From the IMG/VR virus record IMGVR_UViG_3300047094_000158: 20,000 nucleotides of DNA; one strand, given 5' to 3'. The DNA comes from an uncultured virus (IMG/VR IMGVR_UViG_3300047094_000158) (taxonomy: Duplodnaviria > Heunggongvirae > Uroviricota > Caudoviricetes). The notes under the pieces are model-generated. The model saw only the letters and a program-made list of their open reading frames with translations, made no database searches and was not told the origin of the DNA. How positions within the stretch are numbered: the first letter of the stretch is position 1; each line of letters opens with the position of its first letter. The translations under genes and the position numbers were made by a program. Positions 8,892 through 18,072 of this stretch are shown here, one piece after another.

Positions 8892-9110
8892 ATAATAATT
8901 ATACCCTATACCCTGCCAAATCTGAAAAAATTTTCATTTTGAGAAAATCTGAATATTTTTCTTAGATGTATGATATGTAATTTTAAAAATAAAAATGAAA
9001 AAAAATAGTGAGCACACTACTCTGACTCTGTGTAGTGTGTCCTATCATAGTTAGCAAGTGTCCCACCATTTTCTAGGTGGGCTTTGCGTCTTAACTGTTC
9101 AGCAGAATAC

Positions 9111-9408: not shown

Positions 9409-9513
9409 TTAGTTATTCTCCTCGTCAATTCCAAACATTTCCACAAACACTTTGTTTGCTTCTTGTAAAGCCTCTATGGCTTCGTTAATCTTATCCATGT
9501 TAGCGATAGTCAT
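9409..9513 (-). CDS. 34-aa hypothetical protein
   Basis: MTIANMDKINEAIEALQEANKVFVEMFGIDEENN; TAATG coupling. Confidence 0.6.
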   Translation of the reverse strand: MTIANMDKINEAIEALQEANKVFVEMFGIDEENN

Positions 9514-9671
9514 TAGCGACCACCTGCCTTAACATATTCCATAGCAACATCAAAACCCATTTCGTCAATGAGTTGAGCAGCACGGCGAATGCTAATCTCA
9601 GGTTGAGGATGATTGATAGATAGAGCAGATGAGCCAAACTCATCAGCGATTTCGTTATATATAGTGTTCAT
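9513..9671 (-). CDS. 52-aa hypothetical protein, first gene of leftward early operon
   Basis: AAGAAAGG RBS; MNTIYNEIADEFGSS...VKAGGR. Confidence 0.7.
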   Translation of the reverse strand: MNTIYNEIADEFGSSALSINHPQPEISIRRAAQLIDEMGFDVAMEYVKAGGR

Positions 9672-9720
9672 TTAATGAACCTTTCTTTTAATGCGGTTAA
9701 ACCTTTTAACCTTTTGCTGA

Positions 9721-9753
9721 CCTAGGTTATTTGCTCTTGCGAGGCTCACTAGG
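9721..9753 (-). ncRNA. Structured 5' leader: stem, UGAGC/CAAAUAAC internal loop, GCAA tetraloop
   Basis: Minus strand CCTAG-TGAGC-CTC-GCAA-GAG-CAAATAAC-CTAGG. Confidence 0.55.
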
Positions 9754-9778
9754 ATTTCTTATTTAATTGTATGTCGTA

Positions 9779-9817
9779 AGACTATCATATAAACCTTGAA
9801 AAGTCAAGGCGACACGC
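9779..9817 (-). promoter_or_regulatory. Leftward promoter with GACAC box
   Basis: Minus strand GCGTGTC-gcc-TTGACT-N17-TAGTCT. Confidence 0.75.
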
Positions 9818-9837
9818 TGTCTTTTTTTGTGTGATTT

Positions 9838-9901
9838 GCCTCACTTACTTGCTACGCTCATGCGAACACTTGTTCGCCTTATTTGGTAGGCTCATTGAGA
9901 C
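9838..9901 (-). ncRNA. Candidate small RNA with two opposed UGAGC/CAARUAAG internal loops
   Basis: Minus strand GTCTCA-ATGAGC-CTAC-CAAATAAG-GCGAAC-AAGT-GTTCGC-ATGAGC-GTAG-CAAGTAAG-TGAGGC, downstream of its own promoter, no convincing ORF. Confidence 0.55.
9863..9876. promoter_or_regulatory. Perfect Gram-positive/actinobacterial SOS (LexA) box
   Basis: CGAAC-ACTT-GTTCG. Confidence 0.5.
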
Positions 9902-9928
9902 TATCTTTCTTTATTTATTTATAGTAGA

Positions 9929-9968
9929 ATACTATCACACAATACCTGAAAAGTCAAGACGACACGCC
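9929..9968 (-). promoter_or_regulatory. Leftward promoter with GACAC box
   Basis: Minus strand GGCGTGTC-gtc-TTGACT-N17-TAGTAT; 150 bp from the sister promoter. Confidence 0.75.
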
Positions 9969-10049
9969 GTGAATTACATGCCTGTAATTAGTGATATACA
10001 CCACACGACAAATAGTACAAATCGGACATTGGACTCGGGTTTTTTAGAG

Positions 10050-10112
10050 TTATCCACAGGGGTTATCCACAGACACTTTTATACTGGTGAGTATACTGCT
10101 GAGTTATCCACA
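10050..10112 (+). promoter_or_regulatory. Three perfect DnaA boxes
   Basis: TTATCCACA at 10050, 10063, 10104. Confidence 0.8.
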
Positions 10113-10172
10113 GGCTAATGTGTTGCGGATCACATAAAAATTGTCTCATATACTGGTCAGTAATAGCGAAAA

Positions 10173-10194
10173 TGTCAGTGGTCTATGTTAGACT
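10173..10194 (+). promoter_or_regulatory. PafBC/RecA-NDp-type promoter
   Basis: TGTCAG-N10-TAGACT, no TTG -35. Confidence 0.7.
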
Positions 10195-10243
10195 TACCAG
10201 TATAAAGAAAGTGAGAAACTCTCACTAAAGAAAGGAATTCAAA

Positions 10244-10417
10244 ATGAATTCACTAAAAGAAAAAGTGTGTAAGCATACACCTAATAAAAATGCTATCTCT
10301 ATCGTTCATGATGAGCGATTTACTTTCTGCGAGGATTGTGAGCAGAATATAACTTCTCACCTTCGTGAGGATAATGACTTCATGTCATACTGGACTTCAT
10401 GGAAGGTTGGTAAGTAA
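10244..10417 (+). CDS. 57-aa Cys/His protein, paralog of 11244-11426
   Basis: AAGAAAGG RBS; VCKHTPNKNAISIVHDERFTFCEDCEQNI...WTSWKV. Confidence 0.75.
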   Translation: MNSLKEKVCKHTPNKNAISIVHDERFTFCEDCEQNITSHLREDNDFMSYWTSWKVGK

Positions 10418-10840: not shown

Positions 10841-10853
10841 AAAACCCGAGGAG

Positions 10854-10874
10854 TTATCCACAGGTTTATCCACA
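10854..10874 (+). promoter_or_regulatory. Two perfect DnaA boxes
   Basis: TTATCCACA at 10854 and 10866. Confidence 0.8.
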
Positions 10875-11000
10875 TGATACGTATCACATTTACCCCCCTC
10901 TATAAAAGCCCTGCTCAGAGCCTTAATTGGCATACCTATAGAAATGTGGCGTACATCACAAATCAAAATGTCCGTTTTGCCCTACTTACTGGCTAGTAGA

Positions 11001-11022
11001 TGTCAGACCCCCCTGTTATACT
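11001..11022 (+). promoter_or_regulatory. PafBC/RecA-NDp-type promoter
   Basis: TGTCAG-N10-TATACT, no TTG -35. Confidence 0.7.
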
Positions 11023-11072
11023 TACTAGTATAAAGAAAGTTAAATAAAGGTTATTTAACAAGAAAGGTCAAA

Positions 11073-11243: not shown

Positions 11244-11426
11244 ATGATAACACTAGAAAAAACAATAGTATGCAAAGAGCATACACCAAATAAATCTGCT
11301 ATCTCTATGGTAGGAGATGACCAATTCACATTCTGCGAAAGTTGTGAACAAAATATTGAGCGTTGGTATAACGATACTGACCCAGAGCGTCTGCCTATGT
11401 GGACAGATTGGAAAGTGTCTAACTAA
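11244..11426 (+). CDS. Cys/His protein, paralog of 10244-10417
   Basis: VCKEHTPNKSAISMVGDDQFTFCESCEQNI...WTDWKV. Confidence 0.75.
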   Translation: MITLEKTIVCKEHTPNKSAISMVGDDQFTFCESCEQNIERWYNDTDPERLPMWTDWKVSN

Positions 11427-11851: not shown

Positions 11852-11880
11852 TTGTAAATGTCTGCTAATTTTGATAGACT
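11852..11880 (+). promoter_or_regulatory. Promoter with -35 and PafBC-like element
   Basis: TTGTAA-a-TGTCTG-N10-TAGACT. Confidence 0.65.
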
Positions 11881-11917
11881 TACATAGTAAGAAAATAACG
11901 AAAGGAAGTGGCTAACA

Positions 11918-12243: not shown

Positions 12244-12304
12244 GATAAATCACAAGGCAACACACCCCTAGCAGGTTGAAAATGTCAGGGATTTTTGGTA
12301 GGAT
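12239..12304 (+). promoter_or_regulatory. Perfect Crp/GlxR box plus promoter with PafBC-like element
   Basis: TGTGA-GATAAA-TCACA (12239-12254); TTGAAA-a-TGTCAG-N10-TAGGAT (12276-12304). Confidence 0.7.
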
Positions 12305-13062: not shown

Positions 13063-13161
13063 GAACGTTTGTTCTAAAAATCCCCGAGGCGTTTTCCACA
13101 GGTTTGTCCACAGGCCTTTACGTGTGATTAAAAACACACCCCAGATTCCCCAGATCTTTAC

Positions 13162-13200
13162 GGCGTGTCGTTTGAAAACGTCAGTCCAGTCTGCTAGGAT
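13162..13200 (+). promoter_or_regulatory. Promoter with GACAC box and PafBC-like element
   Basis: GGCGTGTC-gt-TTGAAA-a-CGTCAG-N10-TAGGAT. Confidence 0.7.
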
Positions 13201-15265: not shown

Positions 15266-15433
15266 ATGTCCGTATCAAACGCAACTTACAAAGTAGGGGA
15301 TACCTACACAAGCCAAAAGTCCAAAGCCACAGGCGTTATCAAAGAAATCGTGCCACAGGCAAATGGTAATGTTCGTGTTAAGTTAGATGTTGCTGGCGCA
15401 ACTCGCTGGACAACTTGGACAGCAAAGTCATAA
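15266..15433 (+). CDS. Small SH3-like protein, paralog of 16057-16227
   Basis: AAGGAG RBS; TYKVGDTYTSQKSKATGVI. Confidence 0.75.
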   Translation: MSVSNATYKVGDTYTSQKSKATGVIKEIVPQANGNVRVKLDVAGATRWTTWTAKS

Positions 15434-16879: not shown

Positions 16880-17902
16880 ATGGCTCATGATTTAGAATCA
16901 CAAAATGGTGTAGCAAGTTTTGCATCATTCCGTGAACCTGCTTGGCATGGTTTAGGTACTGTGTTTACAGATGAAAAAACAACTAGCGAAATGCTAGAGA
17001 CTGCTAACCTTAATAATTGGAATGTTCGTTTAGAGGAATTAGAAATTCCATCTGCGCTAACATCTGATAAGAATTACCAATATGTAGTGCGTACAAACCC
17101 TACTGATAAATCTCAAACTGATGTTTTGGGAATTGTTGGTGAGCGTTATGTGCCATTGCAAAATGAGGAACTATTCTCATTTGGTGATAACATTCTTGAT
17201 GGCGGTGGACGTTGGGAGACTGCTGGCTCAATTCGTGGTGGTCGTGTAGTATTTGGCTCACTAGCATTAGAGCGTGAAACAATTCTTGACCCTAATGGTG
17301 TTGCAGATAAGGTAAAGACTTATTTGCTTATTAACACATCACACGATGGCTCAATCGCTATTCAAGCAAGCATAACACCTGTTCGTGTTGTGTGTGCTAA
17401 TACTCTTAACCTTGCTCTTGGTGGCGTAGGTCGCAAAAAGAATAAGGGTATCAAGCAATCTTTCAAGATTCGCCACACGCAAACTGCCAATGGTAAGGTG
17501 CAAGTTGCTCGTGAGACTTTAGGTCTTGCTAATGCGTACATGGATGAATTTGATATCATGGCTAAGGCAATGATTGAAAAGACTGTTGATGCTAAAATGT
17601 TTAACGACATTATTCTTGCTGCTTATCCTAAGCCAGAAAAAGATGCTAAGGGTGCTGTTAAAAAATGGGAAAATAAAGTTGATACCATTAATGACATCTA
17701 CACTGGCGAATTTAATGGCATGATTGCTGGTAGTGCGTGGGGTGCGTTCAATGCATTAACTGAGCGTCTTGATTGGTACCGTTCTGCTCGTGGTGGTAAT
17801 AACGAAAGTTTATTAGCATCAGCAAGTGGTTTTGATCCATCAATCAATGCAGAAAAAAATCGTCTGCTAAAAGTTGTACAAAATGTTATGCAACTAGCAT
17901 AA
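16880..17902 (+). CDS. DUF932-family phage/plasmid-like protein
   Basis: MAH...REPAWHGLG, YVPLQN, WETAGSIRGG, YLLINTSHDGS, TPVRVVCANT, IRHT, SAWGAFNALTE; GAAAGGA RBS before ATG 16880. Confidence 0.9.
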   Translation: MAHDLESQNGVASFASFREPAWHGLGTVFTDEKTTSEMLETANLNNWNVRLEELEIPSALTSDKNYQYVVRTNPTDKSQTDVLGIVGERYVPLQNEELFSFGDNILDGGGRWETAGSIRGGRVVFGSLALERETILDPNGVADKVKTYLLINTSHDGSIAIQASITPVRVVCANTLNLALGGVGRKKNKGIKQSFKIRHTQTANGKVQVARETLGLANAYMDEFDIMAKAMIEKTVDAKMFNDIILAAYPKPEKDAKGAVKKWENKVDTINDIYTGEFNGMIAGSAWGAFNALTERLDWYRSARGGNNESLLASASGFDPSINAEKNRLLKVVQNVMQLA

Positions 17903-17942: not shown

Positions 17943-18016
17943 GGTCTGGTAGATCAATTGGTTAGATCGTTACCCTGTCACGGTAAAGGTTGCGGGTTCA
18001 AGTCCCGTCCAGATCG
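17943..18016 (+). tRNA. tRNA-Asp (GTC)
   Basis: Acceptor GGTCTGG/CCAGATC, D stem GATC/GATC, anticodon arm TTACC-CTGTCAC-GGTAA, T arm GCGGG-TTCAAGT-CCCGT, discriminator G; CCA not encoded. Confidence 0.95.
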
Positions 18017-18072
18017 CAAGCGGGGTCGGGTTTTATAACAAAAATGTTATTTATTTTTTCTATTAAGAATAC

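Follow-up and report, generated by a model that had tools for sequence, protein, structure and literature searches.

A covarying family of early leader hairpins with a repeated UGAGC/CRANUAA internal loop in WhiB-encoding lake phages

Minus-strand hairpins in a 20,000-nucleotide stretch of an uncultured Caudoviricetes virus (hereafter the window, meaning the whole stretch analyzed) belong to a structured RNA family that is real and is shared by many related phages. The internal loop of these hairpins is conserved in sequence while the helices are exchangeable, and three helices covary, which bears out the RNA-level motif that an earlier note had proposed from the letters of the window. The family is apparently undescribed. 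We tentatively favor the reading that it is an accessory, modular, multivalent protein-binding leader RNA that heads the first transcripts and acts by dose. The evidence documented below shows how the RNA folds, that its loop is nearly invariant, which strand encodes it, where it lies and how patchily it is distributed; the reading adds to this a putative motif geometry and a presumed binding of protein.

Hairpins and early region of the window

The window corresponds to G000:C1:18939-38938 within a 42.4-kb virus record (37% G+C) and holds small unknown genes, a gp88 gene, a DUF932 gene and a tRNA-Asp(GUC) gene at 17943-18017 (plus strand). Hairpin 1 (9838-9901, minus strand) is composed of an outer 6-bp stem, two internal loops, a central 4-bp helix and a 6-bp top stem. 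In loop A the 5′ strand UGAGC (9890-9894) faces CAAGUAA (9845-9851), and in loop B the CAAAUAA strand (9879-9885) faces UGAGC (9856-9860); the two copies have opposite orientation and are separated by the central helix, CUAC (9886-9889) with GUAG (9852-9855). Hairpin 1 scored 76.6 bits with model R1, which was built including this hairpin. Hairpin 2 (9721-9753, minus strand) has a single loop copy, a 5-bp base stem with a bulged C, a 3-bp top stem and a GCAA tetraloop cap, and relatives carry single-loop hairpins of the same type. Both hairpins had been described in the earlier note and were confirmed, coordinates included.

As had also been proposed, each hairpin follows its own TTGACT-N17-TAGTNT promoter, with the -10 hexamers ending 27 and 25 nt before the stems of hairpins 1 and 2, respectively. 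Promoter P1 (9957-9929, minus strand) is of the sigma-A/70 type, TTGACT-N17-TAGTAT with an extended TG, and its predicted start lies near 9922; promoter P2 (9807-9779, minus strand) reads TTGACT-N17-TAGTCT. A GTGTC sequence is located 3 nt before both -35 hexamers, at 9961-9965 for P1 and at 9811-9815 for P2 (minus strand), and is the reverse complement of GACAC, which the available text of PMC10243135 gives as the WhiA motif. Between P1 and P2 the minus strand has no ORF of at least 50 aa, in agreement with the earlier remark that the larger structure lacks a convincing ORF.

A third hairpin, missed in that first reading, is a 7-bp stem at 9695-9711 (minus strand), between hairpin 2 and the ribosome-binding site (RBS). 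Its structure is kept among relatives but its sequence is not, with compensatory changes in 6 of 6 pairs, and folding z was below -1.5 in 40 of 45 distinct leaders of this type. The Shine-Dalgarno sequence at 9680-9685 precedes the first ORF (9513-9671, minus strand), which encodes 52 aa of no family; behind leaders of the hairpin 2 type, this first ORF varies widely among relatives (44 cases).

The hairpins sit at the left side of a divergent early region. Three boxes at 10047-10114 (plus strand), which we take to be DnaA-type by their consensus, lie where the two early arms diverge. Clusters of such boxes occur at this divergence point and again about 8 kb past gp88, bracketing the early region, and further DnaA-type boxes were seen at 10851-10874, 11763 and 13089-13112 of the window and in loci L207 (18771-18816), L218 (17915-17982) and L221 (17550-17767). 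On the right arm, short gene cassettes are headed by repeated TGTCNG-N10-TANNNT promoters (10170-10212, 10998-11040, 11856-11883, 12278-12301 and 13174-13197, all on the plus strand), a type that is presumably PafBC-like, and a 79-nt coding segment is duplicated with 78% identity in two small ORFs (10272-10350 and 11278-11356, plus strand).

The end of the left arm carries a conserved DNA element of fixed spacing (8945-9015, minus strand), in which a 10-base motif is followed after 30 bases by a second motif and then by an A/T-rich one; over 8 bases the first of these motifs is reverse-complementary to the 5′ arm of hairpin 2. Among the matches listed, the element was present in 38 distinct loci, including those without hairpins and the distant G005 phage, and it is possibly a genome-end or terminal-repeat boundary. 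A plain terminator at 8995-9024 was considered and dropped because its 5′ arm is not conserved and a distant phage lacks the U-run.

Comparative evidence for the fold, the strand and the probable host

The window sequence by itself makes a weak case for the fold. Folding z was -2.05 for hairpin 1 and -0.80 for hairpin 2, the plus strand folded equally well (z -2.76 and -1.90), and a one-loop pattern gave 2 matches in the window against 0.23 expected, a number reached in 3 of 200 shuffles. A third, weak one-loop match, at 17311-17362 (18 bits), is antisense within the DUF932 gene and was treated as chance.

The case becomes decisive with the relatives, because these show a complementary central helix and covariation. 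Our double-loop search pattern left the four central bases free, so their pairing is an independent check. The exact pattern matched 74 IMG/VR loci, which together with the window yielded 123 double hairpins, 64 of them distinct, and the central bases were fully complementary in all 64 (CUAG/CUAG in 37, CUAC/GUAG in 23 and CUAU/AUAG in 4). RNAalifold recovered three helices, with changes on both sides in 11 of 14 pairs. Under our own structure, pairing was seen in 94.7% of 1004 cells, and covariation was 0.638, compared with 0.133 when shuffled and at most 0.092 when slid, figures that come from related sequences and hence are not probabilities. A relaxed scan with a 5-base core gave at least 120 matches, and full pairing was found in 79 of 80 matches from the 80 loci examined. 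The conservation of the loop is not a mere effect of the pattern, because the outer strands were near-invariant when only the inner loop was required (UGAGC in 52 of 53, CRANUAA in 53 of 53). Loops kept without compensating helices, which the earlier note had named as the sign of DNA sites, were looked for among the relatives and not seen.

As a control, the relaxed pattern was applied to cellular genomes and matched 63 loci, of which 55 had no fully paired core, five were family phage-like contigs within metagenome-assembled genomes (MAGs) and three were wobble-paired tandem repeats. Tandem repeats of a GAGCGNAGCGA-type unit are widespread in Bacteroidota and other cellular genomes (many cases, L079-L139); they match the loop pattern by sequence, and the hairpin is not formed.

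Three features of the aligned elements bear on the nature of the molecule. Over the eight inner variable pairs, G.U outnumbered A.C by 10 to 0, and by 16 to 11 when the two outermost pairs were added. The loop-flanking pair in 64 outer loops was A.G in 51 and G.A in 6. Distinct top loops were GNRA in 22 of 60, closed by A-U, U-A, G-C or C-G pairs, the other 38 not being GNRA, and one distant copy had a cUUCGg top loop. On comparative sequence grounds, the G.U bias, the A.G/G.A exchange and the GNRA/UUCG loops point to RNA of the transcribed strand rather than to single-stranded DNA.

The carriers of the RNA family are ∼100-kb WhiB-encoding lake phages, with relatives' records of 85-112 kb. WhiB was present in 5 of 5 virus records searched, and serves as an actinophage marker in the consulted part of PMC10202952. 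The gp88 protein matched 391 GenBank records (283 Mycobacterium-named and 99 Streptomyces-named), and its closest cultured relatives are from Mycobacterium and Streptomyces phages. From WhiB and the gp88 relatives, we infer that the hosts are probably freshwater Actinobacteria. A distant relative (L146, G005:C1; 85 kb) carries WhiB and three RNA copies and lies inside a Bifidobacterium-labelled MAG. The class of this MAG is apparently not actinobacterial, and five genomes of that class were without WhiB; a search of 151 genomes of the class with R1 gave three weak, unconvincing hits outside G005. Four further family contigs (L089, L097, L110 and L116) lie inside unrelated MAGs.

No known family corresponded to the RNA in the collections searched. 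Rfam 15 returned only the tRNA for the whole window to E 1, one 17.8-bit hit under its cut-off of 50 for 9680-9980 to E 10, and no match for seven relatives to E 0.5. BLASTN of the region against 50,697 GenBank phages found no match, and a BLASTN query with a single element, run at E 10 on phages and plasmids, found short chance pieces only. The double pattern had no convincing match to a cellular chromosome in the genome collection, so no host RNA with the loop was found there. The motif strings and a general description of the RNA were not found in the literature, in a search that stopped short of the alignment files of PMC10690425 and PMC5737381; the strings were absent from the searched supplementary files of PMC10690425, and the accessible portions of PMC4129139 and PMC10914622 contain nothing on a loop-hairpin RNA of this kind. 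A literature search for phage regulatory RNA for freshwater Actinobacteria likewise found none.

Placement, distribution and candidate functions

Placement just after promoters, reported earlier for the window, extended to the family: the hairpin started 10-34 nt after a -10-like hexamer in 114 of 133 distinct contexts, compared with 2.0% of random positions. Ninety-one of these promoters were of the TTGAC type and 23 of the TGTCNG-N10 type; of the remaining 19 contexts, 8 were behind another hairpin and 11 behind neither. Some hairpins come after a short ORF (L018, L040 and L032), and some tandem promoters each have their own hairpin (L061, L073 and L116), with up to 10 loops in L061. The element next downstream was a promoter in 79 contexts, an RBS in 46 and neither in 8, and a U-rich tail, a feature of intrinsic terminators, followed the stem in only 2 of 133. 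These counts lend no support to the discrete small RNA that had been proposed; because terminators are scarce and a promoter or RBS usually comes next, transcription from P1 probably continues through P2. The proposal of a strictly two-fold ligand is also weakened. Hairpins held one, two or three loops in 12, 112 and 9 of the 133 contexts, at a spacing of 4 or 5 bp, and for this reason we regard each loop as an independent site rather than as half of a rigid two-fold unit.

In all four virus records that are at least 90% complete, hits of at least 22 bits spanned at most 1.7 kb and were confined to the early region. RNA sequencing runs gave nine matches with a share of at most 0.08; the four contigs examined hold pieces of the region with relatives' variants, and such contigs carry no strand, start, end or level.

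Distribution was assessed in 80 loci picked via the gp88 protein and not via the RNA (the best 80 of 188), 61 of which span the left boundary element to gp88; tallies were made by model hits. Among these 61 loci, the RNA was confined to the left arm in 30 and to the right arm in 5, occupied both arms in 23 and was absent from 3. The hairpin-less loci are L207, L208 and L218, of which L207 and L208 are near-copies; all three records are fragments, and the two searched whole are 24-25% complete. Left copies in L168, L169, L186, L187, L172 and L174-L177 were found by the model at 53-58 bits. The four arm states needed nine changes on a tree built from 38 distinct gp88 genes (with L225 entered as none although it bears the RNA), and L168 and L172, only 0.006 apart on this tree, differ by one RNA copy. 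In the window the hairpins precede the ∼0.9-kb left arm alone, promoters are numerous within the right arm, and most early promoters have no hairpin. This arm distribution, together with the unrelated genes behind the hairpins, is more readily explained by a protein sponge or 5′ cap that is accessory and dose-dependent than by an antiterminator of the put/nut type, and the decoy idea of the earlier note gains indirect support from the patchy, dose-like pattern.

The RNA stems also house candidate DNA operators. A CRP-like site at 9830-9845 (unstranded), which overlaps the hairpin 1 3′ arm upstream of P2, matches 9 of 10 positions of TGTGA-N6-TCACA, which we take to be the CRP consensus. The top stem of hairpin 1 coincides with a candidate LexA-type operator, CGAAC-N4-GTTCG (9863-9876, unstranded), the Gram-positive LexA consensus as given in the available portion of PMC2248561. 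Nine of 60 distinct top arms were LexA-type and 10 were CRP-type. LexA-type sites lay within such stems at 9 of 15 distinct sites (154 loci), and a third top-stem palindrome, ATAAC-N5-GTTAT (L003, L010, L011 and others), did so at 9 of 48. Because homologous promoters without loops (L207 and L219) retain a CRP-type box in the corresponding position, the loops appear to have been built around a pre-existing DNA site. A sequence-free RNA stem that houses candidate DNA operators would be an unusual dual coding.

Under the favored leader reading, each UGAGC/CRANUAA loop would fold into a kink made of a U-A pair, a sheared G.A, a reverse-Hoogsteen A.U, an A-rich bulge, a G-C pair and a bulged C; the non-canonical pairs are drawn by analogy, the invariant bases yielding no covariation. 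Each loop would bind a single molecule of a protein, which would most likely be an RNA-binding protein or a nuclease of the host. As the first RNA from the strongest promoters, present in 0 to 10 copies, the element would work by dose, with a leader-embedded decoy rather than a free small RNA soaking up the protein. The hairpins may also shield the 5′ part of the transcript, and the top stem, which often doubles as a LexA- or CRP-type operator, could let the state of the host gate the output. The element seems indifferent to the gene behind it, because a promoter comes next in 79 of 133 contexts and the first ORFs are unrelated in 44 leaders. Several observations count against the favored reading: proximity to promoters is equally expected of a cis-acting signal, there is no terminator or processing signal to release a small RNA, neither a protein partner nor a host RNA with the loop was found in the collections searched, and the three hairpin-less records are fragments.

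Such a cis-acting signal, a 5′ cap or translation switch, is a possible but rather doubtful alternative. Here the bound protein would block 5′-end-dependent decay, or would free the RBS from the 5′ arm of the leader. The separate hairpin at each tandem promoter agrees with this, as does the finding that the hairpin 2 5′ arm can alternatively pair with the RBS-to-start stretch, at -12.9 kcal/mol the best of 55 cases and the predicted minimum for the P2 leader (mean of the 55 related cases -7.4, compared with -5.8 for 329 control RBS regions). However, these 55 cases are related and the signal is restricted to one leader type, comparable RBS spacers are also seen in the absence of a hairpin (L230 and L207), and a promoter, not an RBS, follows most hairpins while most early promoters lack one.

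We think it unlikely that the RNA is a put/nut-like antitermination signal through which RNA polymerase reads through terminators. Phage lambda nut sites are structured RNA in nascent transcripts of divergent early promoters. The phage RNA likewise amounts to ∼60-75 nt just after such promoters, as do putL and putR in the consulted text of PMC9378689, the P2 leader has two stem-loops, and the gene for a conserved 55-aa protein of SH3/KOW type lies nearby. Against this, homologous arms have or lack the RNA freely, and an element needed for the read-through of each operon should not vary in this way; the window RNA heads only its short left arm while the right arm relies on many internal promoters; and one to three loops per hairpin are unlike the fixed put fold. 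The gene for the 55-aa protein (15266-15433, plus strand) is common to 6 of 6 genomes compared and has 107 relatives at E 0.001. Its structural model is a small SH3/KOW/Tudor-type barrel (mean pLDDT 74.6) whose best match is generic (Z 6.6, rmsd 1.9, 46 aligned), with no Foldseek match at E 0.001, and from this model the protein is a candidate nucleic-acid or RNA-polymerase binder. As the partner of the RNA it is disfavored, since it does not co-vary with the RNA and is kept in all three hairpin-less loci.

That the loop mimics the L1 site, and that the phage thereby senses or sequesters free ribosomal protein with uL1 or a related binder of rRNA sites as the ligand, is improbable. Both the rplK operator of E. 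coli and the L1 site of 23S rRNA share with the phage loop a GA opposite UA, a closing G-C pair and a bulged A/U-rich strand, and the 23S L1-site core GAG/AAAUA is identical to the phage loop core, but GA/UA tandems are common in RNA loops. In uL1 operators a G-C pair is conserved next to the GA, together with a GG/CC helix, whereas the phage elements have U-A at that place in 64 of 64, followed by a purine mismatch or bulge. A pattern search of 72 rplK leaders gave 26 hits and left 46 leaders without one; the G-C pair with the GG/CC helix was present in 22 of these hits and was recognized by eye in the Nonomuraea, Tsukamurella, Collinsella and B. subtilis rplK leaders, which the pattern missed; these flanking pairs are critical for L1 binding according to the accessible part of PMC3616713.

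A single-stranded or duplex DNA element, such as a priming signal or iteron, is very improbable. DnaA-type boxes adjoin, the 18-base unit looks like a direct repeat, and a 20-base stretch after the DnaA box of ColE1, presumably its primosome assembly site, is identical to the window copy in 18 of its 20 positions; R1, however, did not find this stretch even at E 10, duplex sites cannot give three covarying helices, the top loops and G.U bias are RNA-like, and the cellular repeats that fit the pattern are mostly unpaired. A module for RNA-RNA docking or self-assembly that has no partner protein is scarcely credible: the A-rich bulge and GNRA loops would suit it, and kinked two-fold units can assemble (excerpted text of PMC5435971), but most top loops are not GNRA and the 33-nt single-loop hairpins have no docking target in cis.

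Returning to the multivalent leader reading, we searched for its protein partner and found none among the phage proteins covered. Neither the 20 window proteins nor 74 of 79 proteins common to the genomes had an RNA-binding Pfam domain at cut-off, and the L7Ae and L1 families were not found in 5 virus records. The 12-base loop is near-invariant and yet is gained, lost and multiplied among close relatives, which suggests that the partner stays the same while selection shifts, as happens in conflicts between phage and host. A more speculative extension, to which we give little credence, is a new class of multivalent phage RNA sensor-decoy in which a re-wired kink, similar to a ribosomal-protein site and stacked in varying numbers at the start of the first transcripts, would capture a protein of host translation or RNA surveillance, with the LexA/CRP operators tying output to DNA damage and cAMP. 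The partner of the 33-nt hairpin, if named, would define a new RNA-protein recognition pair.

Comparison with known RNA motifs and regulatory systems

Among known motifs, the closest likeness of the phage loop is the uL1-binding site, whose fold it may share. It is not assigned as an L1 site and is further unlike uL1 sites in having an invariant extra C, in being repeated and in not lying before ribosomal-protein genes. Structure entries 1zho, 2hw8 and 2vpl are L1 entries, and the excerpt of PMC5435971 places RNAs bound by L1 among the 2/6+ k-turns. By the standard kink-turn consensus given there, tandem G.A/A.G pairs are required, whereas the phage loop has U at the first of these positions in all elements. 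The phage loop could accommodate the 3-nt bulge after C-G of a kink-turn if its invariant G and C paired and one C were bulged, positions at which there is no covariation. The bulged-G motif of the sarcin-ricin loop and loop E is not matched either. That motif has a conserved G in AGUA opposite GAA, and the corresponding phage position is A in 49, G in 3 and U in 1 of 53 outer loops.

Among regulatory systems, the HK022 putL/putR RNAs (as presented in the consulted part of PMC9378689) are alike in being ∼70-nt structured RNA in nascent transcripts of divergent early promoters. The put-like placement downstream of early promoters holds in the same 114 of 133 contexts, and the put arrangement of one site per early operon was not found among the 61 loci. 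HK022 put RNA binds RNA polymerase and suppresses termination. In contrast to put RNA, to which it has no likeness in sequence or by model, the phage RNA is built of one to three repeats of one internal loop and is optional on either arm.

The RAT hairpins bound by the CAT dimers of LicT, SacY and BglG have two asymmetric internal loops in a quasi two-fold arrangement. The phage RNA differs from them in having no overlapping terminator, in varying the spacing and number of its loops, and in having no Rfam match. CsrB/RsmZ, phage pseudo-ToxI repeats and Racr RNAs are decoys built of repeats in variable copy number, the phage examples being early. With CsrB-like decoys the phage RNA shares the multiple copies of one unit; unlike the units of CsrB/RsmZ, pseudo-ToxI and Racr, its unit is the internal loop of a rod, set within mRNA leaders and without a terminator of its own.
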